From assembly GCF_041248615.1 (NCBI RefSeq), contig NZ_CP158426.1: a stretch of 64,000 nucleotides of DNA; one strand, written 5' to 3'. Shown here piece after piece: positions 2,595-24,223 of the stretch (its first letter is position 1; each line of letters starts with the position of its first letter). Under the pieces are notes generated by a model that worked only from the letters and a program-made list of their open reading frames with translations, made no database searches and was not told the DNA's origin. The position numbers were made by a program, and so were the translations under genes. This stretch comes from Escherichia coli (lineage in GTDB: Bacteria > Pseudomonadota > Gammaproteobacteria > Enterobacterales > Enterobacteriaceae).

Positions 2595-4025
2595 TTATTT
2601 GCTATTCGCTTTACGCGCCAGCAGCGGGAATATCAGCCCTAATCCTACCAGCACAAACGGCGTTGCAACATTCAGCGCCAACTGGAATGTCCACTCTGCG
2701 GTGAAGGCTTCCATTTTCGGGAAAATACCAGTCAGGCAGGCAAAAGCGGTAAAGGCAAAACACCAAATTCCGACGGTCATTGCCAGCGGCTTATTACGAA
2801 TAAAGACATATTCTGGTTTATATTTCTGCGCCAGGCGAACAACTGCAATAAATGCAACAAATACCCATAAATAACGCAGCGGCATCACTACCGAGTTAAG
2901 ATTCAACAGCCATTTATAGAGATTGTTCATATCACCAATGCCGAGAGTCGGTAGCATTATCAGGATCGCCACCAGCACCAGGGTCAGAAAATAGCCATTA
3001 ACGGGCGTACCAGAAGCGTTGGTACGACATAAACTGGCTGGAATATATTTGCTGTCAGCATCGCCTAATAACACTTTAAGCGGCGCATCAATCGAGAATA
3101 CCAGCGCAGCTACTTGTCCCAGGGTATTCGCAATGGCATAAATCACCATTAAAGTATTACCCATGTTGTAATACTCGCCCAGCTTCTGAAAGGCGTAATA
3201 CTGACCGTTAGTCATTAAGTCATCCGGGATATTACGCGAGTCAAACATCATCCCCATCGCCAGTGAGCCCAGAATGGCACAAACCGCAACCATCACCGCC
3301 AGGCATAACATCCCTTTTGGAAATTCTTTTCCTGGGTTGCGCGTTTGATTAACGTAAGGAGAAATCTTCTCTGCTCCGCCAACCGCGAAAACCAGCATTG
3401 AAATAGTGGTAATGTAGGTAAAGTCGATATGAGGAATGAACGTTTCCCAGGTAATGTTTGTGGTCGCAATATGCACTTCAGTAATTGCAGGCGCGGTTAC
3501 CGCCATCGCCACATACAGGAGCGACATAACAAACATCGCAATCCCTGCCACAGAACCGACGATTTTCAGCGATTTCATACCGCGTGAAGCAACCCACATA
3601 AAGAAGATAAACAGCACCAGCGTTAACCCCTGTAACGCTACGACTGAATATTCTTTGATTAACGAACCGTCGCCTTTCATCGCCCAACCGAGCGCAATCA
3701 GTATTGCCTGGGGTTTTTGTGCCAGATAGGGAATATGCACTACCCAGTAGGTCCACGCGGCGAGGTAAGCCAGTCCGGGTCCCATCGTGTGTTTAATCCA
3801 GGTACTGACCCCGCCCTTCCCATCTTTGAAGGTCGAGCCTAACTGACCAACAATTAGCGCATAAGGTGTGAAATAGAGCGCAAAGATAAACACCCATGAA
3901 AAAACAACCACCAGCCCCTGGTTGGCGTAGTTATTAACAACGTTGCCAAAACCCCAGACAGTGATAAAAGACATCAGCGCAATGTTGTACCATCGCAGCT
4001 GTTTTTCCTGAACATTCCCAGCCAT
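2595..4025 (-). CDS. ycaM: APC-family inner-membrane transporter
   Basis: 476 aa from MAGNVQEKQLRWYN; about 12 hydrophobic segments; the longer track ORF (to 4217) has an unsupported N-terminal extension. Confidence 0.85.
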   Translation of the reverse strand: MAGNVQEKQLRWYNIALMSFITVWGFGNVVNNYANQGLVVVFSWVFIFALYFTPYALIVGQLGSTFKDGKGGVSTWIKHTMGPGLAYLAAWTYWVVHIPYLAQKPQAILIALGWAMKGDGSLIKEYSVVALQGLTLVLFIFFMWVASRGMKSLKIVGSVAGIAMFVMSLLYVAMAVTAPAITEVHIATTNITWETFIPHIDFTYITTISMLVFAVGGAEKISPYVNQTRNPGKEFPKGMLCLAVMVAVCAILGSLAMGMMFDSRNIPDDLMTNGQYYAFQKLGEYYNMGNTLMVIYAIANTLGQVAALVFSIDAPLKVLLGDADSKYIPASLCRTNASGTPVNGYFLTLVLVAILIMLPTLGIGDMNNLYKWLLNLNSVVMPLRYLWVFVAFIAVVRLAQKYKPEYVFIRNKPLAMTVGIWCFAFTAFACLTGIFPKMEAFTAEWTFQLALNVATPFVLVGLGLIFPLLARKANSK

Positions 4026-4234
4026 AGACAAATCCTTCGCCAAAATTAAAGGGGCATCTGTAAAACGAGGGATTATGCGCGGCAAATAAGAAGTGCGGAA
4101 ATAGCGAAATGCAAAATTATAACCTGCTGCACATTTTATTTTTAAACGAATAAAATTTGGAATAAAGCAAGTCAGATAGAAGAAACAAAAAAGCAGAGTG
4201 TGAAACAGTAAGTTCACACTCTGCTTGAATTCAT

Positions 4235-5383
4235 TTACACGTGAGCAACGGGTTTCGGCGTATGACCGGCGTTGCGAAGCAGCATCAGCAAATAGATAAA
4301 CGATACGCTGGCGATCATGATAAACAATAAATTATCGGAGAAATTCTGCATTAGCATGGCAGTAAATGACGGGCCAAGCAGACTTCCCACGGTATAGCTC
4401 AACAGTAAGGCCTGGTTCATCGCCACCAGTTGATGATGTTCAACTTTCTCGCAAGCCCATGCCATCGCCACCGGATATAGCGTAAAGCCAGCGGCACCGA
4501 GGATGAATAACGCTGGGGCCATCGCCGCCTGGCTAAGCATCGCGATACTGCCGAGAATGACGACAAAGACCTGAACACGCAACACCAGCAGTCGACCAAA
4601 CTTATCCGCCAGACGTCCAATCGGCCATTGTCCAAGGATACCCGCACTGACCAGTACCGCCATCCAGAAACCAATGCTGGCATTGCTCACCCCTTTGTGA
4701 TTGAGGTACAGCGGCATCAGGCCATATAGAGATCCCAGAACGATTCCTGAGATAATGCAGCCATTCACGCCAAGCCGCGCCTGACGGAGTTTTAGCATTG
4801 ACGTAATTGACGTCGAATCATGGTTTTCAGCCTGCTGATTCAGCACACGCGTAAACAACAGCGGTAAGATCCCTGCCAACGTCAAACCTGTAACCCACGG
4901 CAATACGGACATCAGCTCGGTTGAAACTTTGCTGACCAGTAACTGGCCTAAAAACGTTCCCACGTAATAAACCATCATATACGCAGCAAGCAAACGCCCA
5001 CGGTTACGTGACGTCCCACTGCACATCAGCGCGCTCTCAACAACCACCCAAATCATGGCACAGCCGACGCCGGCGACAAAACGCCAAGCCAACCAGCTCC
5101 AGAATCCAATCATCAGGCCAAGGCCGGCACAGCCAGCGGCAAAAATGAAGGAGGCCAGATAATAGCTGCGGTTAAAGCCAATGCGCTTAATGACATACCC
5201 TGTCAGCAATGTACCGACCAGGTTGCCGGTAAAATAGGATGAGCTGACAACACCTACCTGCCATGTGGACATGTGTTCCTGGGCGAGCCAAAGCGGCACG
5301 AGTGTATTTAACACTGCGATCGCCAGAGTCAACAAAAGCAGGCCAGACAGCAAAAGCATGACAGGCCGGGTATACGTGGACAT
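4235..5383 (-). CDS. ycaD: MFS transporter
   Basis: 382-aa multi-TM protein; position between ycaM and ycaC. Confidence 0.85.
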
Positions 5384-5697
5384 GAATTAAAACCGTGAGG
5401 AAGTTCAAATTTCATGCGCATCATGCCACCGCCAAAAACATTGTCAATGGGTGAAAATACGCGCATATCGCAGCTGAGGTATTATCGATTTATATTACTC
5501 ATTCATAACGCTAATGCTGGAGAGACGATTAATCTCATCTGATTGTTTTTAATGATCTAACACAAATTTCATACGCTTCGTTCAGTCGAAAAATTTCATG
5601 GTCACAGCAAACTCATATTTCCCGTCTATGCTTTCAGGGCAATGCATCGCGTCTGACCGATTTCAGACGTACCACTGACTCTCGAAAGGAGAAGAGG

Positions 5698-6324
5698 ATG
5701 ACCAAACCGTATGTTCGTCTTGATAAAAATGATGCTGCCGTTTTGCTTGTTGATCACCAGGCTGGTTTACTTTCCCTTGTACGGGATATCGAACCCGATA
5801 AGTTTAAAAATAACGTGCTGGCGCTGGGCGACCTGGCTAAGTATTTCAACTTACCTACTATTCTTACCACCAGTTTTGAAACCGGTCCTAACGGCCCATT
5901 AGTTCCAGAACTGAAAGCACAGTTTCCCGATGCACCTTACATTGCTCGCCCGGGAAATATTAACGCCTGGGATAACGAAGATTTTGTAAAAGCTGTCAAA
6001 GCGACAGGTAAAAAACAGTTAATTATTGCCGGTGTGGTAACCGAAGTTTGCGTGGCATTCCCGGCGCTTTCAGCCATTGAAGAAGGGTTTGACGTCTTTG
6101 TCGTGACTGACGCGTCAGGGACCTTTAATGAAATTACCCGGCATTCGGCGTGGGATCGCATGTCGCAAGCTGGTGCGCAATTGATGACATGGTTCGGCGT
6201 GGCTTGCGAGCTGCATCGCGACTGGCGTAATGATATTGAAGGACTGGCGACGTTGTTCTCTAACCATATTCCTGATTATCGTAATTTGATGACCAGTTAT
6301 GACACGTTAACGAAGCAGAAATAA
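5698..6324 (+). CDS. ycaC: isochorismatase-family hydrolase
   Basis: 208-aa ORF with RBS GGAGAAGAGG; conserved neighbour of dmsC. Confidence 0.85.
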   Translation: MTKPYVRLDKNDAAVLLVDHQAGLLSLVRDIEPDKFKNNVLALGDLAKYFNLPTILTTSFETGPNGPLVPELKAQFPDAPYIARPGNINAWDNEDFVKAVKATGKKQLIIAGVVTEVCVAFPALSAIEEGFDVFVVTDASGTFNEITRHSAWDRMSQAGAQLMTWFGVACELHRDWRNDIEGLATLFSNHIPDYRNLMTSYDTLTKQK

Positions 6325-10296: not shown

Positions 10297-10466
10297 AATG
10301 GCTCACTCAAGCTTGCTCACGATTGATTCCAGTAACAAACCGTATTGTGTAATTATTTCTATAGCAGTTCGCTATATAGGCTTGTATACATCGAATAATT
10401 TGAAAATCAAAGAGATAGGTAGATTTTCACTCGAAAGTAGTATTACGTGTAAGTGAGGAGTAATTA

Positions 10467-10480
10467 TTGTTCGGTATCAA
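10467..10480 (-). promoter_or_regulatory. FNR-type site (TTGAT-N4-ATCAA class) in dmsA promoter region
   Basis: reverse complement reads TTGATACCGAACAA, about 170 bp upstream of dmsA ATG. Confidence 0.45.
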
Positions 10481-10491
10481 AGGGAGACAAA

Positions 10492-10506
10492 AAAAGCGCC
10501 CGCAGG
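10492..10506. repeat. attL core (direct repeat AAAAGCGCCCGCAGG)
   Basis: identical 15-mer at 50468-50482; GGTACTTA at 10516-10523 mirrors TAAGTACC at 50456-50463. Confidence 0.55.
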
Positions 10507-10592
10507 AGATTTAACGGTACTTACTCCTCTTGCTGATTTCCTTATTTTTCAATAAGTAAACAAAAACAAGGGGAGCAAATTATCACAAATAA

Positions 10593-11588
10593 TTACTGGT
10601 CGATGGACAGTTTATGGACACTTTCAGCCAGCGGATTAAAGCTGATCGCATCCTGTAAAAAGTCCGGTGAAAAATGCGCATACGTCATCGTTTGCTGAAT
10701 CGTGGCGTGACCCAGGATCCTCTGCAACGTGACGATGTTCCCGCCGTTCATCATGAAATGCGTGGCGAACGTGTGCCGCATGACATGCGTGGCCTGCCCT
10801 TTGGGTAAGTCGGGCTTCACCTCCTGAAGGATCTCCCTGAAACTGAGATAATCAACCTGATATAACAGGCCGGTCCGGCGGGTTTTAATTAACGGCACAA
10901 CGGAATCAGCTACAGGAACCGAGCGCGATTTCCCGTTCTTTGTGTTAAAGAACGTCACCCTGTTACCCACGATGTGTTCCCCGCGAAGCGTTGACGCCTC
11001 TTTCCATCTGGCCCCGGTCGAAAGGCACAGAATGGCAATGCGTCGTGCATCACCCTCAAGCCGTTTCAGAAGGCGATCAATCTCGTCATCTGAAAGAAAG
11101 GCCATTTCTGTATTCTGAACCTTGAGTTTACGTATTCCGCGCACAGGGTTTTCGTTATGATAAACCTCCGCGTCAATTAACAACGAAAACATCGCAGATA
11201 AGGCGCACAGGTCGCGATTGATACTGGACGGCATCAGTCCCGCCTGCAACTTATCCGAGCGATACTCAATCACGAATTTTCGTGTCATCTGGCTGGCGCG
11301 CGGGTCCCCCATTTCACGTATCACCTTCTCCAGTCTGGTTCTGTAGGTATCACCATATGCCTGATTACGACCATCAAGCATCCACCACACCTCAATCAGT
11401 TCTGATAACCGCCGTTGATCGGCGGGCCTTGCCTGCCACGGGTTATTGTGGAAATTCTGAAGAACGTATCTTTCGAATTCCTGCGCCTTTGATTTCAGGG
11501 TGAAAATCTTACGAATCCGCCTTCCTCCCGCCCCCTGAGGCCTTACATCAACCTGATAACGTCCGTCTTTGAGTTGCTTAATCGACAT
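10593..11588 (-). CDS. int: P2-type tyrosine integrase
   Basis: 331 aa from ATG with SD GGAGGTG; N-terminus MSIKQLKDGRYQVDVRP and C-terminal HxLRHxFAT...Y catalytic region; resemblance to P2 Int is from memory. Confidence 0.9.
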   Translation of the reverse strand: MSIKQLKDGRYQVDVRPQGAGGRRIRKIFTLKSKAQEFERYVLQNFHNNPWQARPADQRRLSELIEVWWMLDGRNQAYGDTYRTRLEKVIREMGDPRASQMTRKFVIEYRSDKLQAGLMPSSINRDLCALSAMFSLLIDAEVYHNENPVRGIRKLKVQNTEMAFLSDDEIDRLLKRLEGDARRIAILCLSTGARWKEASTLRGEHIVGNRVTFFNTKNGKSRSVPVADSVVPLIKTRRTGLLYQVDYLSFREILQEVKPDLPKGQATHVMRHTFATHFMMNGGNIVTLQRILGHATIQQTMTYAHFSPDFLQDAISFNPLAESVHKLSIDQ

Positions 11589-11657
11589 GATCAGCACCTC
11601 CGACGGATAAACCTGTTAACCCCTGCTTACTGAACGCCGCCCGTTCAATATACAGCG

Positions 11658-11999
11658 TCAGCCAGCATTGCGGCCTGATTGGGGTGATTTTTGGGTATTG
11701 CGGGTTGAAACCTGATCGTCCTCCGACTGCGTGGAGCCATCAAGAGAGAGAGCCGGGGCGATCTGACCGGCAACAGGTAGCGTCTTATCTTTGATTAGCC
11801 AGAACATATATTTTTCAAACCGATCCACTTGAAGGACGGCCTCAACAATCTTTGCTCTGGCGATCTTTTGCCCTGACTCATAATTCCTGACAGTTGCCAG
11901 AGATAACCCTGTAATATCAGCAAATTGCTTTTGAGTTAGCCCTTCCGTCTTGCGTATCAAACGCAACTTTTTCGCATAGTCTATTGACAAGATACTCAT
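11658..11999 (-). CDS. P2 C-type immunity repressor (HTH)
   Basis: 113 aa; HTH near N-terminus; C-terminal GQIAPAL motif recalled from P2 C; divergent from cox-like gene. Confidence 0.8.
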   Translation of the reverse strand: MSILSIDYAKKLRLIRKTEGLTQKQFADITGLSLATVRNYESGQKIARAKIVEAVLQVDRFEKYMFWLIKDKTLPVAGQIAPALSLDGSTQSEDDQVSTRNTQKSPQSGRNAG

Positions 12000-12102: not shown

Positions 12103-12624
12103 ATGCGGGAGATTATTGCCGACAAAGAGTTATCTGGCGCTCAACCGGTTCAGGATGATGGCGCGGACAATGAATTCATTGAAGCTGCCAACGACAACGA
12201 ACACCTGGAAACCAAAACCAGACCGTCCTACAAAAAGGGCGCAACCCTACGACTGGACGGCCCAGTCGCAGGACTTGTGTCACTGGAAAAAGGGGCTGCC
12301 TATCTGGGGGTAACAAAATCTGCGCTACGCGCCGCCATTCAGCGCGGGCAGATGCCGGGTCACAAAACGCGCTCAAATCCCGAAGATGAAAAGTCAGACG
12401 GTACATGGTGGTTTAACGCCAAAGCCTGGGACGAACTAGCCGACGAACTACTGGAGTGCGAACCGCCAGAGTGGCACAACTGGAAAAGCTACTGGACGTA
12501 CGACCGCAAGAAAAGAAAGTTTTCACCGGCAAACAAGGAGGACTGCCAGACCGTTAAAGGTAAGCAGGTTTACTCCCCCAGAGTTTCAAAACTGGAGCAA
12601 CTCAAAAACAACCAGCCCGGCTAA
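12103..12624 (+). CDS. Cox/excisionase-like DNA-binding protein (early operon first gene)
   Basis: 173-aa ORF with SD GAGGAT; divergent from repressor. Confidence 0.55.
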   Translation: MREIIADKELSGAQPVQDDGADNEFIEAANDNEHLETKTRPSYKKGATLRLDGPVAGLVSLEKGAAYLGVTKSALRAAIQRGQMPGHKTRSNPEDEKSDGTWWFNAKAWDELADELLECEPPEWHNWKSYWTYDRKKRKFSPANKEDCQTVKGKQVYSPRVSKLEQLKNNQPG

Positions 12625-14217: not shown

Positions 14218-14427
14218 ATGACTGCAATTCTGAGAAGACGCAATAAAACGCTTTTTACCGATACATCCGGGATGGAATACGAAGTGGAAAGCAGTGTCAT
14301 CGCCACCACCACCCGATGCCCGGCAGGTGACGAACTGATTTACGTCCACCTGACGGACGGGTCACAGATAACCGTCCTGACAGAGTCATGGCGCGAACTC
14401 GAGATAATAAGCGAGGTAAGAACATGA
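14218..14427 (+). CDS. hypothetical early protein
   Basis: 69-aa ORF with SD GAGGG. Confidence 0.45.
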   Translation: MTAILRRRNKTLFTDTSGMEYEVESSVIATTTRCPAGDELIYVHLTDGSQITVLTESWRELEIISEVRT

Positions 14428-14636
14428 GCAGCAAACACGATACCAACGCACGCAGACCAGGCAAAGAGGCGCGTCACCATATCGCCGTAATGCGCAACCT
14501 GCTTATGAGTGAAATCGACGATTTTGTGGCAGGCCTGGGGCAACCGGGCGAACCAGCAACACCAGGCCAGATACACAGGGAATTACGCCGCCGCGTGGAA
14601 AACGTCGTGGATTACGTCATAAACCCGAACGACTGA
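14424..14636 (+). CDS. hypothetical early protein
   Basis: 70 aa from ATG overlapping previous stop (ATGA); SD GAGGT. Confidence 0.45.
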   Translation: MSSKHDTNARRPGKEARHHIAVMRNLLMSEIDDFVAGLGQPGEPATPGQIHRELRRRVENVVDYVINPND

Positions 14637-14675
14637 CGGGAACATGGCGAGCGTCAGATGACACACGCAGGGCAC

Positions 14676-15158
14676 TTATCGGGAAAAACCGATCGTAATG
14701 GCAGCCATCATCTTTTCAGCGAAAGAGAGAGATTCACGATGACTGATATTCAGAGACATACAGGCTTTGTTGTACGCCACATTTTCCATGCATTCCAGGA
14801 CAGGAGAGTCATGCATCTCAAGCTCTGGAAGGCGTGCCAGCAGAGCTTCCGTACTGAGGAGGGCGCTTTTGGTAATCAACTCATTGTAGCGATGGGCATG
14901 CTCACTCGCCGCCTGCGCACGTTGCCCGAAACGACATATGAAATTACAGGCTCCGAGAACCACCACCACTGCCCCAAGCACCCAGCCGAAATGCCAGCCG
15001 GCTACGATGAACGCACCCGCCGCAAGGATCAAAATGTTGATGATCGCATCAAGGCGACGATTGAATACCGCCGCGATGCGCTCCAGCCAGTAGCTGTACC
15101 AGAGACGGAACATGACCTCATCCCGTTCTCTCGATTTTTTACGTTGGTTGTTTTGCAT
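14676..15158 (-). CDS. 2-TM membrane protein, opposite strand to early operon (candidate exclusion/abortive-infection protein)
   Basis: 160 aa; SD GAGGGA; two TM helices then soluble domain; host-like codon usage, unlike the overlapping plus-strand ORF. Confidence 0.6.
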   Translation of the reverse strand: MQNNQRKKSRERDEVMFRLWYSYWLERIAAVFNRRLDAIINILILAAGAFIVAGWHFGWVLGAVVVVLGACNFICRFGQRAQAASEHAHRYNELITKSALLSTEALLARLPELEMHDSPVLECMENVAYNKACMSLNISHRESLSFAEKMMAAITIGFSR

Positions 15159-15392
15159 GGTGTTTTATCCCTCATCGTCATCGCTCTGCCCCTAATCAGC
15201 GCAGAGTGCAGGGTAACCTGGCTCGTGGAATTTTTGCAGCCAGACATCTTTACCCCCGGGCGTGTTGAACAAAGTGTCCGCCAGATCCACTGAACGGCGG
15301 ATTCATCAATGCTAACACGCCCTTCTTTTCCGGTTGAAGGCGAAAAAACCGGACCATTACCCCGACACAAAACAGAACAACGGAGAACAACT

Positions 15393-15947
15393 ATGCCCGC
15401 ACTTAAACCTATGGGTGTATCAGGTGTACCACCGAAGCATGTCAGAGCCTGGACACAACAGGAAGATGCTCTACTGGTCGGTTTATACCCCTCCCACACC
15501 GTACCAGAACTGACAAAACACTTTCAGAGAACCGGGCCAGCAATACGAAGCCGCATCCGTCTTTTGCTCTCTCAGGGGGTTATCCACACCAAACAACCCC
15601 CCCTGAATACAAAAGAACTCAACACGCTCATCAGGAATCGCCACACAAAAACCATCCGGGAACTCGCGAATGAACTGGGGCGCTCGACATCCACGGTGGG
15701 ACTGAACCTGAGAAAAAGAGGGTACCGGTTCAGGAAATACGGGGAACTCCACCACAGAGCCAGATACAGCGATCACCTGGTGGAGTTGGTAACTGAACTG
15801 CGCGATGAACAGGGGATGACATTCAGCGAAATCAGAAAGTACATCCGGGACATGGCCGGGATATCCCTTAAAAGATGGGTCCTCGCCCGGCTTTACGCAC
15901 GATATACCGCCGCTGACACCGTGCTTTGCGAACTGCTACCGGACTGA
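15393..15947 (+). CDS. HTH/Myb-like DNA-binding protein
   Basis: 184 aa from ATG with SD GGAG; W-x2-EDALLVGLY Myb/SANT-like segment; divergent from the membrane-protein gene. Confidence 0.55.
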   Translation: MPALKPMGVSGVPPKHVRAWTQQEDALLVGLYPSHTVPELTKHFQRTGPAIRSRIRLLLSQGVIHTKQPPLNTKELNTLIRNRHTKTIRELANELGRSTSTVGLNLRKRGYRFRKYGELHHRARYSDHLVELVTELRDEQGMTFSEIRKYIRDMAGISLKRWVLARLYARYTAADTVLCELLPD

Positions 15948-16174
15948 GTAACCACTATGCACACACAAAAAAACCGCTTGCCATGCCGCAATCAGTCAGG
16001 TTACATTTCCGCTGCACCTCATAAAACGGGTGCCGGGATTGCAACCCCCGCTGACAACTACAGCGCACAACCGCGCCAGCGGTTTTTTTGTGCGTACCGT
16101 ATCGCCACGTCTTTTTCGCGCCAGAATTATGGCGGGGCGTATGGGGCCGACTTCGGTCGGGCCGGTTTCTGTAG

Positions 16175-16242
16175 TTGCCGGTGGTTGCAACCCTGTACGT
16201 CTCGCCACCCAGAATTGCAACCTCTGGATGGTGAGTTTTCAA
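16175..16242. promoter_or_regulatory. three phased TTGCAAC(C) boxes; a fourth copy at 16029-16036
   Basis: TTGCAA palindromic cores at 16175, 16205, 16236 (30-31 bp apart), upstream of ORF 16268. Confidence 0.35.
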
Positions 16243-16267: not shown

Positions 16268-16492
16268 ATGGCAAACCGCAAACAACAGCGCGCATACGCT
16301 GCGCGTCGTCACATCCAGACTGAAATCAACCGCAGACTTTTCCGCGCATTCCGCGTCGCGCATATCATGCACATCAATATGCTGCATGAGCGCAGCCACG
16401 CACTGTCAAACATGTATTCCGCCGCTGTATTCAGCTACCTGGCGGATGACCTGCGCGAGCTGCAGGACCTCATTAACCAGCACCACCACTAA
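16268..16492 (+). CDS. small basic protein (hypothetical)
   Basis: 74 aa; SD AGAGG; basic N-terminus. Confidence 0.45.
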   Translation: MANRKQQRAYAARRHIQTEINRRLFRAFRVAHIMHINMLHERSHALSNMYSAAVFSYLADDLRELQDLINQHHH

Positions 16493-16979: not shown

Positions 16980-19490
16980 ATGAGCCATCACCACACGCAC
17001 CTGGCGTACCCGTGGAACGCCCCGCTGCCGGTTATTGATCCTGAGACATTCGGCAGAGCATTACCGCAGAAGCCAACCGCATTACAACGGGCAATCCGTG
17101 ACTACCTCACCGAAGACATTCGCACTGAGGCCCGGCTGGATGAAGAAACCGTGGCCTTCCTGACAACCACGGACAAAGGTAAGCAAATTAATTCACACCT
17201 TCACCGGGACGAAGAGCGGCAGATAAGGCTGGATAAGCTGGCACGACACAGACGCGAAAATCCGCCAACGGCGGTATCGGAGGCGATAGCCGAACTTCGC
17301 ACCCTGCCCTCGTTTCTTGCCAGTGTGTTGATCCGTGATCTGGCACGACTGAACCGGAAACAGCAAAGTGCCCGCAGTGAAGGTGTAAAAAACAACAGCG
17401 CATACGTGGCCGATAATTTCGTTCGCCGTGGACTGCGTGCGCGCCTGAAACGTATTGAAAGGGTTAACGACCGCTTTGCAACGCCGGCATTCAAAACCAC
17501 CGTCGTGCGCCATCGCCTTGAAGAACTGCTCACACTGCCGCAACTCACCCGTGACGAAATCCAGCGCATCGCCACACTGACAGCCCAGGCATTCGCCGCA
17601 GAATTTGAACGCATATGTGATGAAGTTCTTGAACGGACAGGCAAGGATAATGACAGCCCGGTTATCTGGCTGCTGGCCTACCAGAAGGTGGCACGCACAG
17701 CCTTAATTCTGGGCATGGTCCCGCCATACTGGCCGGAACTCGAAATCAGGCACAACCGACGCACACCGCCGGACCCTGAACGGGTTCCGGGTGCGGTACT
17801 GCGCATCACCTGCGCGACCTGGTGGAACAACCAGTTACGCCACGTCGCCGATCTCTGGCGGGAGGAGTTACTGCGCGCCGCCGGCAGAGTGTCACGTAAA
17901 CAATCCCCCTATATCAGCCATGAGTCACTACTGGAGTTCCGCGAGAAGCGCCAGCGCACCTGTGACTTTCTCAAAAGCTGGGATATTGAAAACGAAGACG
18001 GCGAGCGCCTGAGTCTGGAGGACGTGTACTGGGCTGGCCTGGGTAATCCACGCAACCGCCGCAATGAAATGATGGTCTGCGTCAGAGGGATGGAGATGGT
18101 GGCCGAATTACGGGCTGACGTCGCATTCTTCATCACAGTAACCACCCCTTCCCGCTTTCACAGCGTGAACGAGAACGGCAGCCTGAACCCGAAATACAAC
18201 GGTGCCACAGTACGAGATGCCAGTGATTATCTGGTTTACGACTTCTTCGCAGCCGTAAGAAAAAAAATAAAAAAAGAGGGGCTGGGCTGGTACGGCGTGC
18301 GAACCGCTGAGCCACACCATGACGGCACGCCACACTGGCATATGCTGGTATTCACTTCCCCGGAGAACGCAGAGCGCATCATCGAAATTATGCGCGAAGC
18401 AGCAATTAAATCAGATCGCCACGAACTGGGGGACGATATTTCACCGCGCTTTAAATGCGAGAAGATAGACCCGGAAAAAGGCACACCGGCAAGCTATATC
18501 GCAACCTATATCGGTAAGAACCTGGACGCCAGCGCTTTCCACAACAATGATCCGAAAACCGGAAAACCTTACGTTGATGAGGAATCCGGGAAAACCATGG
18601 CGGAAACCGTGGAGAACGCCATTGCCTGGGCAAGCCTTCACCGCATCCGTCAGTTCCAGTTTTTCGGCATTCCGCCCCGCCAGGTATGGCGTGAACTCCG
18701 CCGCCTTGCAAGCCAGATGGAGCGCAACCCGGCATCACCGAAGCACCTCGATCATGACGATATTGACGCCATTATGGCTGCCGCAGATGTGGGATGTTTT
18801 GCCACCTACATCATGAAACAGGGTGGTGTGCTCATTCCGCGCAACCAGTATCTGGTCCGCACCGCATACGAAACCGCAGACGAAGCCAACGACTACGGTG
18901 AATTCCCTCAACGTATCTACGGAATCTGCGCCCCGTCGCTCGGAGAGCGGTACACCATATGCACCCATCCGGACGAGTGGAAACTGGTTAAAAAAGAAAC
19001 AACACCAGACAACCGCACGGGCGAGGGTTTTGACCTTCATGGCGACCCCGTCGCCCCTTGGACTCGTGGCAATAACTGTCCCCGGGATGAAAAAACAGAC
19101 AATCACGGACCAGAAAACAGGCAGGACCCCGGACGACTGACGCTTCCCGAAGAGAACCTGGAAAGCTGGCTGAATACGTTAAGCAGGGGCGATCGGAGAA
19201 AACTGCGTAATCAGATTAAAAATCAGCCGTCGGGCGCAAAAACCGGACAAAACGACACCACACCGGCATCTGACACCCCTGTAAGGGTGGGGATTGTCGT
19301 GCCTGCGGATACCGCGACGGACACGCAAATCGCCCGCGAACTTGATGCGCTGGGTGTGCAGTTGCCTGACGCGGCCATCATCTCCGTGCGTAACGGTGCC
19401 CGTGTGCGTCTGGATAACGGGGGAACAGCGTACTGGGATGAGTCAGCCCGTCACATCATCACAGAGCAGCCAGTGGAGGCGGGAGCATGA
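16980..19490 (+). CDS. rolling-circle replication initiator (P2 gpA-like)
   Basis: 836 aa; HUH-type motif HHDGTPHWHMLVF; size and position match P2 gene A. Confidence 0.9.
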   Translation: MSHHHTHLAYPWNAPLPVIDPETFGRALPQKPTALQRAIRDYLTEDIRTEARLDEETVAFLTTTDKGKQINSHLHRDEERQIRLDKLARHRRENPPTAVSEAIAELRTLPSFLASVLIRDLARLNRKQQSARSEGVKNNSAYVADNFVRRGLRARLKRIERVNDRFATPAFKTTVVRHRLEELLTLPQLTRDEIQRIATLTAQAFAAEFERICDEVLERTGKDNDSPVIWLLAYQKVARTALILGMVPPYWPELEIRHNRRTPPDPERVPGAVLRITCATWWNNQLRHVADLWREELLRAAGRVSRKQSPYISHESLLEFREKRQRTCDFLKSWDIENEDGERLSLEDVYWAGLGNPRNRRNEMMVCVRGMEMVAELRADVAFFITVTTPSRFHSVNENGSLNPKYNGATVRDASDYLVYDFFAAVRKKIKKEGLGWYGVRTAEPHHDGTPHWHMLVFTSPENAERIIEIMREAAIKSDRHELGDDISPRFKCEKIDPEKGTPASYIATYIGKNLDASAFHNNDPKTGKPYVDEESGKTMAETVENAIAWASLHRIRQFQFFGIPPRQVWRELRRLASQMERNPASPKHLDHDDIDAIMAAADVGCFATYIMKQGGVLIPRNQYLVRTAYETADEANDYGEFPQRIYGICAPSLGERYTICTHPDEWKLVKKETTPDNRTGEGFDLHGDPVAPWTRGNNCPRDEKTDNHGPENRQDPGRLTLPEENLESWLNTLSRGDRRKLRNQIKNQPSGAKTGQNDTTPASDTPVRVGIVVPADTATDTQIARELDALGVQLPDAAIISVRNGARVRLDNGGTAYWDESARHIITEQPVEAGA

Positions 19491-21636: not shown

Positions 21637-21829
21637 TGCGTATTTTCATGAAAGGAGATCACTCAATAACTTCCATCGAGATCGGGTAATAACATTTGAA
21701 CAGATCGCTGAATAACATCGATGGAGATCACTTTTGACTCATTTTGTTATTCAGTGATCTCCATCAATGTTATTGGAACTTCACAGGTGTGTTGATCTGT
21801 ATCTTTTGCCATTCCGGTAAAGGATACCT

Positions 21830-23371
21830 ATGCCAACAGTTCCAATTTCTATGAGAAAACTTAAAGAAATTCTTAGGCTTAAATACGGTGTTGGACTCAG
21901 CCATCGACAAATTGGTCGTAGTCTTGCAATCTCCCCTTCCGTTGTATCCAGATATGCTAATCGGGCGGCTCAACTTGGCATAAAGCAGTGGCCCTTACCT
22001 ACAGGATGGGATGATACAAAACTAAAACATGCGTTCCTTCAGACCCAGGTTAAGATGAAGAAGCACTCTCTGCCTGACTGGGCTACAGTACACCGGGAAC
22101 TGCGTAATAAATGCGTGACGCTGCAGCTACTCTGGGAAGAATACTGTGAGCGTAATCCAGGCGGTTTTTACAGCTATAACCATTACTGCCGGATGTACCG
22201 TGAATGGCTCAAAACCACTTCACCATCAATGCGTCAGGTACATAAAGCTGGCGAAAAACTTTTCGTTGATTACTGTGGACCTACCGTTGGCGTTACCGAC
22301 CCTGAGACCGGAGAAATAAGAACTGCTCAGGTCATCGTAGCTGTTCTCGGGGCATCAAGTTACACATGGGCAGAGGCCACCTGGTCTCAGCAGCTTGAAG
22401 ACTGGGTGATGAGTCATGTTCGCTGCTTCCAGTGGTTGGGTGGCGTTCCTGAACTTGTTGTTCCGGACAATCTGAAAAGCGCCACATCCAGGGCATGTAA
22501 GTATGATCCTGACGTTAACCCTACCTACCAGCAGATGCTTGAGCATTATAATGTCGCAGTTTTGCCTGCGCGGCCACGTAAACCGAAAGATAAAGCCAAA
22601 GCTGAAGTTGGCGTTCAGGTTGTTGAACGCTGGATCATGGCCCGAATCAGGCATGAGATCTTCTACAGCCTTGCATCGCTTAATCAGCGCATTCGGGAGT
22701 TGCTGGAAAGACTGAATAACAAAATAATGCAGAAGTTGGGTTATTCACGTGCAGAACTCTTCATCCAGCTTGATAAACCCGCACTGAAGCCTCTTCCTGA
22801 AGCCAGTTACAGTTACACCCTGGTGAAGAAAGTCAGAGTTCATGCCGATTACCACGTGGAAATCGACAAACATTACTACTCGGTTCCATGTTCGCTGTTA
22901 GGCCAGCAACTGGAAGCATGGATCTCCGGAGAACTGGTAAGACTCTTCAATCAGGGGCAGGAGGTTGCTGTGCACCCGCGCAAGCGTACTTATGGCTACA
23001 GTACCCGCAACGAGCACATGCCTGAAGCTCATCGACAGCATGCCACCTGGACGCCAGAGCGTCTTCTGGAATGGGCGGGGCACATAGGCAGTGAAACTCA
23101 TAGTTATGTGCTTCATATACTGAACTCTCGTCCACATCCGGAACAAAGCTATCGCTTCTGCCTTGGACTCCTGAACCTTCATAAAAAATACAGTAAAGCC
23201 AGACTTAATGCAGCATGTGCAAGAGCTCTGAAAACAAAGGTATGGCGTCTGTCAGGTATTAAATCGATCCTGGAAAAAGGTCTGGATAAACAACCTGTTC
23301 AGGATCCAAAACCAGATCTGTTATCCACGATGGAACACGAAAACGTACGCGGCAGTGAGTATTACCACTGA
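21830..23371 (+). CDS. istA: IS21-family transposase IstA
   Basis: 513 aa; N-terminal HTH; DDE-type integrase core; followed by istB. Confidence 0.9.
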   Translation: MPTVPISMRKLKEILRLKYGVGLSHRQIGRSLAISPSVVSRYANRAAQLGIKQWPLPTGWDDTKLKHAFLQTQVKMKKHSLPDWATVHRELRNKCVTLQLLWEEYCERNPGGFYSYNHYCRMYREWLKTTSPSMRQVHKAGEKLFVDYCGPTVGVTDPETGEIRTAQVIVAVLGASSYTWAEATWSQQLEDWVMSHVRCFQWLGGVPELVVPDNLKSATSRACKYDPDVNPTYQQMLEHYNVAVLPARPRKPKDKAKAEVGVQVVERWIMARIRHEIFYSLASLNQRIRELLERLNNKIMQKLGYSRAELFIQLDKPALKPLPEASYSYTLVKKVRVHADYHVEIDKHYYSVPCSLLGQQLEAWISGELVRLFNQGQEVAVHPRKRTYGYSTRNEHMPEAHRQHATWTPERLLEWAGHIGSETHSYVLHILNSRPHPEQSYRFCLGLLNLHKKYSKARLNAACARALKTKVWRLSGIKSILEKGLDKQPVQDPKPDLLSTMEHENVRGSEYYH

Positions 23372-23382
23372 TACGGGATCCA

Positions 23383-24132
23383 ATGATGAATCATCTTTAC
23401 GAACAACTGACCGCACTTAAACTCACCGGCTTCCGTGATGCGCTTAAAAAGCAACTTGCTCAGCCGGGCACATACCAGGAGCTGGGCTTCGAAGAACGCC
23501 TGTCATTACTGACAGCAGAAGAACTAACCTGCCGTGAAAACAGGAAGGCAGAGCGTCTGATCAAACATGCACGGTTCAGACTTAATGCTGAGTTATCAAA
23601 GCTGGATTATCGTAACAATAGAGGGCTGGACAGGGCCCTCATCCGTTCACTCAGTCAGGGAAACTGGTTAACCCTGAAACAAAATATTTTACTGACCGGG
23701 GCCACCGGCAGCGGTAAAACGTTCCTGGCATGTGCACTTGGTCATAATGCCTGCCGACAGGGATACAAGGTCTACTATTATCGCCTTAAAGCGCTGATGG
23801 AACAGTGCTATCAGGGGCATGCTGATGGAAGATACAGCAAACTTTTGACCAGGCTGAATAATAGCGATCTGCTGCTTCTGGATGACTGGGGGCTGGAACC
23901 TCTCTCATCAGAACAGCGTAGCGACCTGCTGGAAATAGTGGATCTGATGTACCAACGAGGCTCAATCATCGTAGTGAGCCAGTTGCCGGTGGAAAACTGG
24001 TACAAAATGATCGGAGACTCCACACATGCGGATGCCATCCTAGATCGACTGGTTCATGGCAGTATCAAGATCGAACTTAAAGGAGAATCAATGCGGAAAA
24101 TACAATCTCCGTTGACCGAAGGAGATCAGTGA
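23383..24132 (+). CDS. istB: IS21-family ATP-binding helper IstB
   Basis: 249 aa; Walker A GATGSGKT. Confidence 0.9.
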   Translation: MMNHLYEQLTALKLTGFRDALKKQLAQPGTYQELGFEERLSLLTAEELTCRENRKAERLIKHARFRLNAELSKLDYRNNRGLDRALIRSLSQGNWLTLKQNILLTGATGSGKTFLACALGHNACRQGYKVYYYRLKALMEQCYQGHADGRYSKLLTRLNNSDLLLLDDWGLEPLSSEQRSDLLEIVDLMYQRGSIIVVSQLPVENWYKMIGDSTHADAILDRLVHGSIKIELKGESMRKIQSPLTEGDQ

Positions 24133-24223
24133 AGGTAATTTAAAAACGGTTCTGTGAAAGTGACACGAACCGATCTCCATCGATGTTACTCACCGATCTC
24201 CTTCACGGTAATACGCAATTGAT

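Follow-up and report, generated by a model that had tools for sequence, protein, structure and literature searches.

The analysed window is a 64,000-nucleotide stretch of an Escherichia coli contig (NZ_CP158426.1). It contains a prophage that is P88-like (Peduoviridae) and harbors an IS21 insertion. A small cassette lies antisense within the early lytic operon of this prophage. [quoted passage not shown] The cassette is bounded on the left by the last early-operon gene before the insertion (14388–14636, plus strand; phrog_4144, E = 9e-13). Its right-hand part is a 234-bp spacer (15159–15392), a non-coding region upstream of the membrane gene that travels with it. Beyond the spacer lies a plus-strand gene (15393–15947) for a 184-residue DNA-binding protein with three helix-turn-helix (HTH) modules. 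As the original prediction stated, the membrane gene is the sole minus-strand gene between cox and gpA; this holds for an identical E. coli locus annotated by PGAP.

The membrane gene and its antisense frame

The substitution pattern of the membrane gene identifies it as a real gene under purifying selection. Its ATG is preceded by a Shine–Dalgarno (SD) sequence, GAGGGA, 9 nt upstream. In comparisons with five homologues, nucleotide differences pile up at third codon positions (for example, 54/32/98), and the dN/dS ratio of the frame is 0.06–0.36. The open reading frame, the SD sequence, the third-position bias and the low dN/dS together bear out the predicted 160-residue minus-strand gene. 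The frame is unbroken in all 26 genomes of the window's clade, which come from several hosts and countries; because these genomes are at least 99% identical, selection on the gene within the clade is not measurable. The AT skew falls across the gene. Its codon usage had been described as host-like and proved not to be distinctive, with a GC content of 0.52–0.54, the same as that of the flanks.

The opposite strand of this locus holds a 211-residue open frame (14658–15293, plus strand), which the original prediction had named as the gene that might replace the membrane gene. This frame runs in line with the early operon, and equivalent frames were chosen as genes by the annotators of two phage records, as gp08 of Yersinia phage vB_YenM_42.18 and as STM2733.1 of Fels-2. 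However, the plus frame has a dN/dS ratio of 0.8–1.4, its first codon position would be the most variable, and it contains one or two stops in the related loci L006 and L007. Its product matches no PHROG, NCBIfam or PADLOC family. Furthermore, the antisense frame concerned stays open where TTA, CTA and TCA codons are rare, a known source of long shadow ORFs. We thus regard it as next to impossible that the plus-strand frame is the real gene and describe it as a shadow ORF antisense to the membrane gene; the gene calls in the two phage records need correction.

Folding against shuffled sequences revealed no significant terminator at the membrane gene of the window. The hairpin noted earlier at 14637–14661 folds no better than its shuffled versions (z = −1.1 and −1.3; matched by 26 of 200 shuffles), but the L004 homologue of the membrane gene has a strong hairpin (z = −5.2). 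A search of the spacer yielded no sigma-70 consensus promoter, and no convincing sigma-70 or sigma-54 promoter could be placed there by eye.

The insertion and the neighboring HTH gene

The HTH gene starts at the ATG at 15393, which follows GGAG at a distance of 8 nt. Its homologues are 183–186 residues long and begin with the same methionine, and PGAP assigns 184 residues to the copy in L019. These observations agree with the predicted 184-residue gene diverging from the membrane gene across a 234-bp spacer, and they call for correction of some PGAP records in which the gene start is over-extended. The protein belongs to phrog_323, "transcriptional regulator" (E = 2.6e-27), exhibits only weak HTH matches in Pfam, and weakly matches the bipartite HTH domains of Tc3/Pax. 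Its AF2 model (pLDDT 82) contains three modules of three helices each.

Comparison of related loci shows that the HTH gene is part of the early-operon core of P88-like (Xuanwuvirus) phages and keeps its position and strand regardless of the cassette. In Citrobacter phage Shae_phiSM, a homologue with 85% amino acid identity occupies the same position; in this phage and in L018, only 15 bp separate the HTH gene from the preceding early gene. Likewise, the HTH gene abuts the preceding early gene in approximately 41 E. coli genomes that lack the cassette, and it is 88% identical there at the DNA level. Among the tblastn matches listed for the phage collection, full-length homologues occur only in Shae_phiSM and in Mu-like inserts of two Stx phages; P2 itself is not among the matches listed. 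The homology of the window to cassette-less phages begins at approximately 15401. At the left boundary, the phrog_4144 gene is shared by the window, L019 and L006, and a DUF4406 gene takes its place in L004. The spacer segment occurs in 33 E. coli genomes versus 31 for the membrane gene, in the same strains. By these comparisons, the membrane gene is an insertion between two genes that related phages have side by side, as befits a moron.

Could the HTH protein be the regulator of its divergent neighbor? The two genes are divergent neighbors in the window, L006, L007 and L019, and the spacer between them holds a conserved block. However, the HTH gene occurs alone in Shae_phiSM and the approximately 41 E. 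coli genomes, with homology starting right at its start codon. Conversely, the membrane gene is found without the HTH gene in L004, L036–L042 and Yersinia, Fels-2, lambdoid and Mu-like phages, and in L004, L036–L042 and all non-P88 contexts the conserved block accompanies the membrane gene rather than the HTH gene. Since each gene occurs without the other, the two do not form a functional pair, and we consider a regulator–effector module very improbable. Of the moron-like pair envisaged in the original prediction, the insertion of the membrane gene relative to related phages is retained, but the HTH gene belongs to the phage backbone.

The conserved block (15316–15352), CACGCCCTTCTTTTCCGGTTGAAGGCGAAAAAACCGG, forms the right end of the cassette and is nearly invariant in the spacer alignment. 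It does not change across cassettes whose proteins are only 54–60% identical, and it persists next to a different downstream neighbor in L004 and where the rest of the spacer has been deleted in L007. A CCGGTT/AACCGG stem is present in the block, although its folding is not significant. Two roles were rejected for these 37 nt. The block encodes no peptide, because the length of its A-run varies, and it is no general hotspot boundary because it is confined to the same small genome set as the membrane gene. The palindrome TTGTTGAACAA does not recur as an operator elsewhere in the window.

Orientation of the membrane gene and the upstream micro-ORF

The membrane gene is rare. It is present in 31 of 5426 complete E. 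coli genomes and, according to tblastn, in four phages (five records) of a collection of 50,697 phage records. Related loci were gathered by a search with an eight-sequence alignment of close members, and searching for further homologues by word index, with the profile of the family, returned no additional members. In all of the approximately 20 distinct phage backgrounds that were read, the gene is solitary and opposite to the surrounding lytic genes. Among the IMG/VR loci, 23 of 24 belong to Peduoviridae, with the membrane gene on the CI/Int strand, against gpA and cox; in L023, it has a strong early-promoter-like site (TTGACA-18-TATATT) on one side and cox on the other. The antisense placement recurs in Fels-2 and the Yersinia phage, in the left operons of lambdoid prophages, in a tail operon, at the end of a Mu-like element and between the Q and holin genes. 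At least 11 placements are independent, and all of them are antisense (p ~5e-4 under 50/50 odds). This orientation is compatible with expression of the gene in the lysogen.

The convergence with lytic transcription everywhere, together with the L023 copy directly downstream of an early promoter, would also suit a gene that serves the phage's own cycle, either in holin-like lysis timing or through antisense transcription that damps a leaky early operon and stabilizes lysogeny. However, purifying selection acts on the protein sequence, and thus the product matters, not only the act of transcription. Moreover, the gene is never a lytic-strand member of the lysis cassette, and some phages carry tail and late-region copies, for which the damping of an early operon has no relevance. 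We consider a role in the phage's own cycle very improbable.

Most family members contain a small, unannotated, proline-rich ORF just upstream of the membrane gene. In the relatives, this micro-ORF encodes 26–40 residues, has a strong SD sequence of its own and stops 3–18 nt before the ATG of the membrane gene, whose SD sequence sits inside the last micro-ORF codons. The peptides carry the conserved motif FHV(L/P)xKPAPxPE or stretches of as many as seven prolines, and match no PHROG or NCBIfam family. The differences at the three codon positions of the intact micro-ORF (357/278/605) indicate that it is selected as a peptide in the relatives, and its omission from the P2-like records examined is a further point for annotation correction. 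The micro-ORF leaders of eight relatives form no significant RNA structure (z = −1.4 to +0.8).

The window retains a decayed remnant of the micro-ORF (15165–15247, minus strand), in which the ATG is out of frame and a TAG stop interrupts the frame at 15194–15192. The homologous frame reads DVWLQKFHEPGYPALCAD, a stop, GQSDDDEG and a second stop; the micro-ORF of intact relatives reads MSDSDKFHVPRQPAPAPEKGQGRDDEEG and ends with a stop. In the window, the GATGAGGGA tail is now only the SD sequence of the membrane gene. The micro-ORF is also absent, with the membrane gene kept, in L007 and L036–L042, which makes three clades with that of the window. Given the decay, the window copy would be without the control or partner function that the micro-ORF provides, and the membrane gene of the window clade may be deregulated or inactive.

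This decay raises the alternative that the cassette of the window is a non-functional passenger whose membrane gene looks intact because its decay is recent. The frameshifted start and the TAG stop of the micro-ORF, the IS21 insertion in the prophage and the near identity of the 26 clade genomes, within which selection escapes measurement, are all in keeping with a passenger. However, the 160-residue frame is intact throughout the clade, across hosts and countries, and retains its SD sequence; in addition, the L007 and L036–L042 clades lack the micro-ORF too, yet have kept the gene. We judge a decaying passenger unlikely.

Resemblance to SLATT proteins and proposed function

The membrane protein contains a 38-residue hydrophobic stretch (residues 38–75) that a 4-residue turn divides in two, with K/R-rich segments on either side of the stretch. 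Its predicted topology is a two-helix hairpin with both termini in the cytoplasm (N-in/C-in), and hydropathy, charge distribution and the AF2 model concur on the two transmembrane helices proposed originally. The model (pLDDT 96, pTM 0.87) is all-helical, with helices at residues 2–52, 58–75 and 77–99 and three more. Two adjacent transmembrane helices thus have cytoplasmic helices on both sides, as in SLATT proteins, and Foldseek finds the fold of annotated SLATT proteins in the model. Approximately half of the best 50 Foldseek matches in AFDB50 are named SLATT or DUF4231 (TM 0.8–0.94, E = 4.5e-12 to ~1e-5), many of the matches being automatically named members of the same family and no SLATT structure having been solved for experimental comparison. 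"Fels-2 prophage protein" is another name among the top matches. Neither a sequence-profile search of the PDB nor Foldseek against the PDB identified a solved structure that resembles the protein.

At the sequence level, the best-scoring NCBIfam profile is SLATT_4 or SLATT_1 in 11 of the 21 family members tested, with sub-threshold scores (E down to 1.2e-5). The curated SLATT cut-offs were not reached: the window protein scores 16.5 bits against SLATT_1 (cut-off 41), and the best relative scores 25.2 bits against SLATT_4 (cut-off 55). Pfam yielded no SLATT or DUF4231 match for the window protein or any of the 92 aligned members. PADLOC-DB 2.0 gave no significant match, with only a marginal LeoBC match for the window protein (E = 0.018) and none for 10 relatives.

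SLATT proteins are represented by the NCBIfam families SLATT_1 to SLATT_6 and by a Pfam SLATT clan that includes DUF4231. SLATT effectors occur in CBASS, Thoeris type VII (ThsH) and DRT10/UG17, and SLATT accessories occur in RADAR and DRT3. To our knowledge, SLATT proteins are known only as killing effectors or accessories that work with a signal-producing partner. The membrane protein resembles SLATT effectors in its size (~150–170 residues), its transmembrane hairpin with cytoplasmic helices on either side, its predicted fold, which matches proteins named SLATT/DUF4231 in UniProt, its weak but recurring SLATT_4/SLATT_1 matches and its carriage on mobile elements. Unlike SLATT effectors, it stays below the curated thresholds, with Pfam silent, and its gene is embedded antisense in the lytic operons of prophages, never beside a cyclase, SLOG, TIR or reverse transcriptase gene (~20 contexts). 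The usual proline-rich micro-ORF is a further difference, as none was found described for SLATT systems in the literature. No cyclase, TIR or reverse transcriptase gene is present in the GF60 prophage, which is 99.7–99.9% identical to that of the window over the aligned stretches and has a different IS21 insertion, and no SMODS cyclase, SLOG, TIR or reverse transcriptase gene was found in the flanks of the approximately 20 other contexts.

SLATT proteins have been proposed to be pore-forming effectors in CBASS, Thoeris VII and DRT10 (PMC9226505, PMC12632851, doi 10.64898/2025.12.03.692087). A SLATT-type two-helix protein that is carried alone and against the lytic genes is therefore a candidate for a lysogen-expressed anti-phage factor. 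We propose, with moderate confidence in the proposal as a whole, that the membrane protein is a stand-alone SLATT-fold protein, with a cytoplasmic N-terminal helix, a tight transmembrane hairpin and a cytoplasmic helical C-terminal region, and that its gene is probably a mobile moron that is expressed in lysogens and encodes a membrane-permeabilizing exclusion or abortive-infection factor. The small mobile cassette would consist of the upstream region, usually with the micro-ORF, followed by the SLATT-like gene, and temperate phages would have acquired it repeatedly as a moron. The reality of the gene, its fold, its solitary state, the insertion and the constant orientation against lytic transcription are established by the comparisons above, and the expression and activity that follow are inferred. 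The membrane gene would be transcribed from a putative promoter of its own while the prophage is repressed and silenced by convergent early transcription once its own prophage is induced. In the lysogen, the product would reside in the inner membrane, where an incoming phage would trigger it to oligomerize and render the membrane permeable, resulting in abortive infection or exclusion. Counted against this explanation were the absence of a signal-producing partner near the membrane gene, the lack of a sigma-70 consensus and of a significant terminator in the window, the SLATT matches below the cut-offs, the decayed micro-ORF and the rarity of the gene.

A literature search revealed no prior description of solitary prophage SLATT proteins, of STM2734 or of SLATT proteins in P2-like phages and no transcript data; a Salmonella prophage transcriptomics study omits Fels-2.

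The cassette can also be compared with morons and exclusion proteins, such as HK97 gp15, P22 SieA, lambda RexB and T4 Imm. As in these cases, a single gene for a small inner-membrane protein is inserted between otherwise adjacent genes in an orientation that permits expression while the lytic genes are repressed. Like P22 SieA, T4 Imm and HK97 gp15, the membrane protein might keep the DNA of superinfecting phages out at the inner membrane without killing the cell. A solitary gene with no sensor partner, an orientation compatible with lysogenic expression and an inner-membrane hairpin with both termini in the cytoplasm are consistent with a DNA-entry block, and the loss of the micro-ORF in three clades that kept the gene fits a non-toxic protein more easily. 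However, the fold and the weak sequence signal favor SLATT, for which only killing or accessory effectors are known. The periplasmic loop comprises only 4 residues and would thus offer little surface to an injection apparatus, and PHROGs and PADLOC reveal no sequence or family relation to the known Sie proteins or the other proteins named above. We consider a DNA-entry block a minor possibility, less probable than the permeabilizing factor.

If the stand-alone, phage-carried version of SLATT exists as proposed, it would show how a pore protein is controlled without a signaling partner, and a compact candidate of one or two genes would join the prophage-encoded protections. The P2/P4 defence hotspots likewise involve a P2-like prophage with variable, possibly anti-phage cargo, but these hotspots are reported from the late region of P2 and from P4; in contrast, the cassette of the window is part of the early operon and has no significant match among the PADLOC models. 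In a term search of the article on these hotspots (Rousset et al. 2022; PMC9122126), the word "early" is absent and SLATT is mentioned once, for an RT-SLATT system.

Tentatively, and with less conviction than for the permeabilizing factor itself, we suggest that the ancestral unit was a two-gene cassette, in which a proline-rich micro-protein was translationally coupled to a SLATT-like pore protein. The micro-ORF might have acted as a labile inhibitor or as a polyproline (EF-P-sensitive) leader, so that the pore would be freed when an infecting phage disturbs host translation, with convergent early transcription as the off switch at prophage induction. Many temperate phage lineages would then carry a SLATT effector that works without a nucleotide-signaling partner. 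In contrast to the leader peptides of SecM-secA, TnaC and ErmCL and to EF-P-dependent polyproline stalls, in which a small upstream ORF couples or gates the translation of the gene behind it, the micro-ORF leader showed no conserved RNA structure, the peptide may just as well act as a small binding partner, and the frame is decayed in the window. The similarity lies in a short proline-rich ORF with a strong SD sequence just before the membrane gene of the relatives. In every context read, the membrane gene is placed so that it would be made only in the dormant phage, usually behind this conserved micro-ORF.

The coding strand and the predicted product

The prophage in the window is a P2-like element of the P88 group (Xuanwuvirus, Peduoviridae), and its integration site adjoins dmsA. 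The integrase (10593-11597) and CI-type repressor (11658-11999) genes lie on the minus strand, and cox (12103-12624), a series of small early genes after it and gpA (16980-19490), which encodes the replication endonuclease, lie on the plus strand. The sole minus-strand gene annotated by PGAP between cox and gpA is 14676-15158, and 25 complete E. coli genomes share the ~1.7 kb around it at 99.5-100% identity. This 160-aa ORF overlaps a 211-aa ORF on the plus strand (14658-15293). In a comparison of five homologous loci with 37-60% protein identity (L004, L006, L007, L023 and L003 from Yersinia phage vB_YenM_42.18), the minus frame gathers most differences at the third codon position (e.g. 54/32/98) with a dN/dS of 0.06-0.36; the antisense frame has a dN/dS of 0.8-1.4. 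Furthermore, the plus ORF is interrupted by stops in L006 and L007 and matches no family in PHROG, NCBIfam or PADLOC. Thus, the minus-strand gene is real, as originally predicted, and the plus ORF is ruled out as a gene and represents its shadow. The hairpin proposed where the converging genes end (14637-14661) was not borne out, given that its folding is not significant. The shadow strand has been annotated in Fels-2 as STM2733.1 (L016 3914-4321; true gene opposite at 4001-4459) and in the Yersinia phage as gp08 (L003 4788-5453; true gene opposite at 4977-5444).

What does this gene encode? Residues 38-75 form a single hydrophobic stretch that is split by WHFG, consistent with the two-TM protein that had been predicted. 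Nine K/R residues in the N-terminal 37 residues, together with R76 and R80 after the second helix, suggest that both termini should be cytoplasmic. The protein belongs to phrog_6315 (5e-65), annotated as function unknown, and has no Pfam match, a marginal LeoBC match in PADLOC (E=0.018) and a weak SLATT_1 match in NCBIfam (16.5 bits against a cut-off of 41). An exhaustive search recovered 107 clusters of stand-alone relatives of ~150-170 aa. SLATT_4 or SLATT_1 was the top NCBIfam match in 11 of the 21 members scanned, always below the cut-off (best 1.2e-5), and none of 92 members matched the Pfam SLATT families. AlphaFold2, supplied with the family alignment, yielded an all-helical model (pLDDT 96, pTM 0.87); no comparable solved structure was found in the PDB. 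Roughly half of the 50 best Foldseek matches to this model in AFDB50 (E from 4.5e-12 to ~1e-5, TM 0.8-0.94) carry the names SLATT or DUF4231, although many belong to this very family and were named automatically. We refer to the predicted membrane hairpin as SLATT-like, after the two-helix effectors of bacterial immune systems, because it shares their fold and a weak sequence signal, yet its subfamily lies outside every curated model.

Antisense placement and the neighboring HTH gene

Of 24 IMG/VR loci, 23 hold the membrane gene between the CI/Int genes and gpA of a P2-like prophage, and in all 23 it occupies the CI/Int strand, opposite cox and gpA. Its position varies: it adjoins the HTH gene (window, L019, L006 and L007) or the isrK/C4 RNAs (L004 and L036-L042), lies between fil and STM2733 (Fels-2) or before gpB (Yersinia phage), or separates cox from a strong early-promoter-like site (L023). 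Outside P2-like phages, the gene runs counter to the leftward early operon in lambdoid prophages, to a tail operon or, where a Mu-like element ends, to Dam-methylase and tail genes, and in a further context it lies between Q and a holin gene. All of at least 11 independent placements oppose the lytic genes (chance ~5e-4 at 50/50 odds). Such constancy is unlikely to arise by chance and matches the pattern that is classical for morons. The mobile cassette is solitary, and no cyclase, TIR, SLOG or reverse transcriptase gene was found near it in the contexts read, nor in the prophage of strain GF60, which is 99.7-99.9% identical to that of the window over aligned stretches.

The 234-bp spacer upstream of the membrane gene (15159-15392) belongs to it, since the same strains share both (33 genomes for the spacer and 31 for the gene). 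The spacer contains no recognizable consensus promoter and includes a nearly invariant 37-nt block (15316-15352), which is kept across cassettes whose proteins are 54-60% identical and where the downstream neighbor differs.

Beyond the spacer, the anticipated 184-aa HTH-like gene (15393-15947, plus strand) starts at ATG 15393, with GGAG 8 nt upstream; its homologues (183-186 aa; 184 aa by PGAP in L019) share this methionine. The protein folds into three predicted three-helix modules (AlphaFold2 pLDDT 82), weakly resembles bipartite HTH DNA-binding domains and belongs to phrog_323 ('transcriptional regulator'). In some genomes, PGAP extends the gene too far, to ATG 15309 (212 aa), a start that the homologues and the SD contradict; the extension (15309-15392) would cross the conserved non-coding block. 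In Citrobacter phage Shae_phiSM and ~41 E. coli genomes, the HTH gene follows the preceding early gene by ~15 bp and the membrane gene is absent; window homology to these genomes starts at ~15401. The HTH gene is thus a phage backbone gene. The membrane gene also occurs without it (e.g. in L004 and other contexts). Because each gene occurs without the other, the two are neighbors by insertion rather than a module. Of the moron-like pair originally envisaged, the inserted membrane gene stands, but its partner is backbone, and the idea of an effector regulated by the HTH gene is not upheld.

The micro-ORF and a proposed mechanism

Most relatives carry a small proline-rich ORF of 26-40 aa, preceded by a strong SD of its own, that ends 3-18 nt upstream of the start codon of the membrane gene (e.g. 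L019 3557-3650, L004 ~5910-6000, L016 ~3910-3995, L023 4905-4991 and L049 ~3860-3980). Examples of the peptide in P2-like phages are MSDSDKFHVPRQPAPAPEKGQGRDDEEG (L019), MSDADKYHTRRDPSPAPENGQGGNSKD (L004), MSDSDNFHVLPRPAPAPKPEPGQDKK (Fels-2) and ...DFHILHKPAPPEEKKTDDEE (Yersinia phage). More distant versions keep a proline-rich end (e.g. ...RPTPPPPSTP..., ...TPPPPPPPRSD, ...GAPPKAPPKK). Runs of four to seven prolines occur in some versions of the peptide. Pooled codon-position differences of 357/278/605 indicate selection on the peptide sequence, and the codons of its acidic tail (GAYGAYGAGGAG) also serve as the membrane gene's SD. Neither PHROG nor NCBIfam has a family that matches the peptides, and no significant RNA structure was detected in the leaders. 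None of the P2-like records examined, from E. coli, Fels-2 and the Yersinia phage, annotates the micro-ORF; a few other records (Providencia and EKP1 phage, and some metagenome contigs) do include distant versions. In the window it has decayed, with its ATG out of frame and a TAG in the homologous frame (DVWLQKFHEPGYPALCAD*GQSDDDEG*), and this copy is a derived form of the cassette. Its loss here, its deletion in L007 and its absence from the L036-L042 clade argue that it probably modulates the membrane gene without being essential to it. The small peptide may act as a partner or an inhibitor, or it may serve as a polyproline leader through which translation is coupled.

We propose that the membrane gene would be expressed while the prophage is repressed and that convergent early transcription would silence it upon induction. 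An incoming phage may trigger its product to permeabilize the membrane, by analogy with SLATT effectors, for which permeabilization has been proposed in CBASS, Thoeris VII and DRT10 (PMC9226505, PMC12632851, doi 10.64898/2025.12.03.692087). The main alternative to permeabilization is that the protein forms a non-lethal barrier to phage DNA entry. SLATT proteins are already well known, and members of this family are deposited as 'hypothetical' or auto-named SLATT. In the searchable literature, we found no description of a solitary prophage-borne version, its constant anti-lytic orientation or the conserved micro-ORF.

Other features of the prophage

At 173 aa, the Cox-family protein (12103-12624) is about double the size of its counterparts in the related P88-like phages Shae_phiSM and L018 (288 bp, ~95 aa; both lack the membrane gene), which suggests an added domain. 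Rfam places the sRNA STnc130 (10387-10521, 125.8 bits) immediately beyond the integrase gene, at the prophage edge on the dmsA side, and identifies isrK (16014-16089) and C4 antisense RNA (16125-16212) in tandem on the plus strand. A promoter-like site (TTGCCA-18-TACATT, 15978-16007) precedes the tandem, and a 74-aa 'derepression protein' gene (16268-16492), a 137-aa gene and gpA follow. The segment 15978-16492 resembles an antirepressor module under RNA control, in the style of P1/P7 immI, within the P2-like early operon; part of it is mislabeled 'ash family protein, incomplete' by PGAP in a related genome. An IS21-family element (21640-24220; IstA 21830-23371, IstB 23383-24132) separates the early region from the portal gene. 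In the otherwise near-identical GF60 prophage, the IS21 element lies elsewhere in the opposite orientation, and the two insertions are therefore independent.
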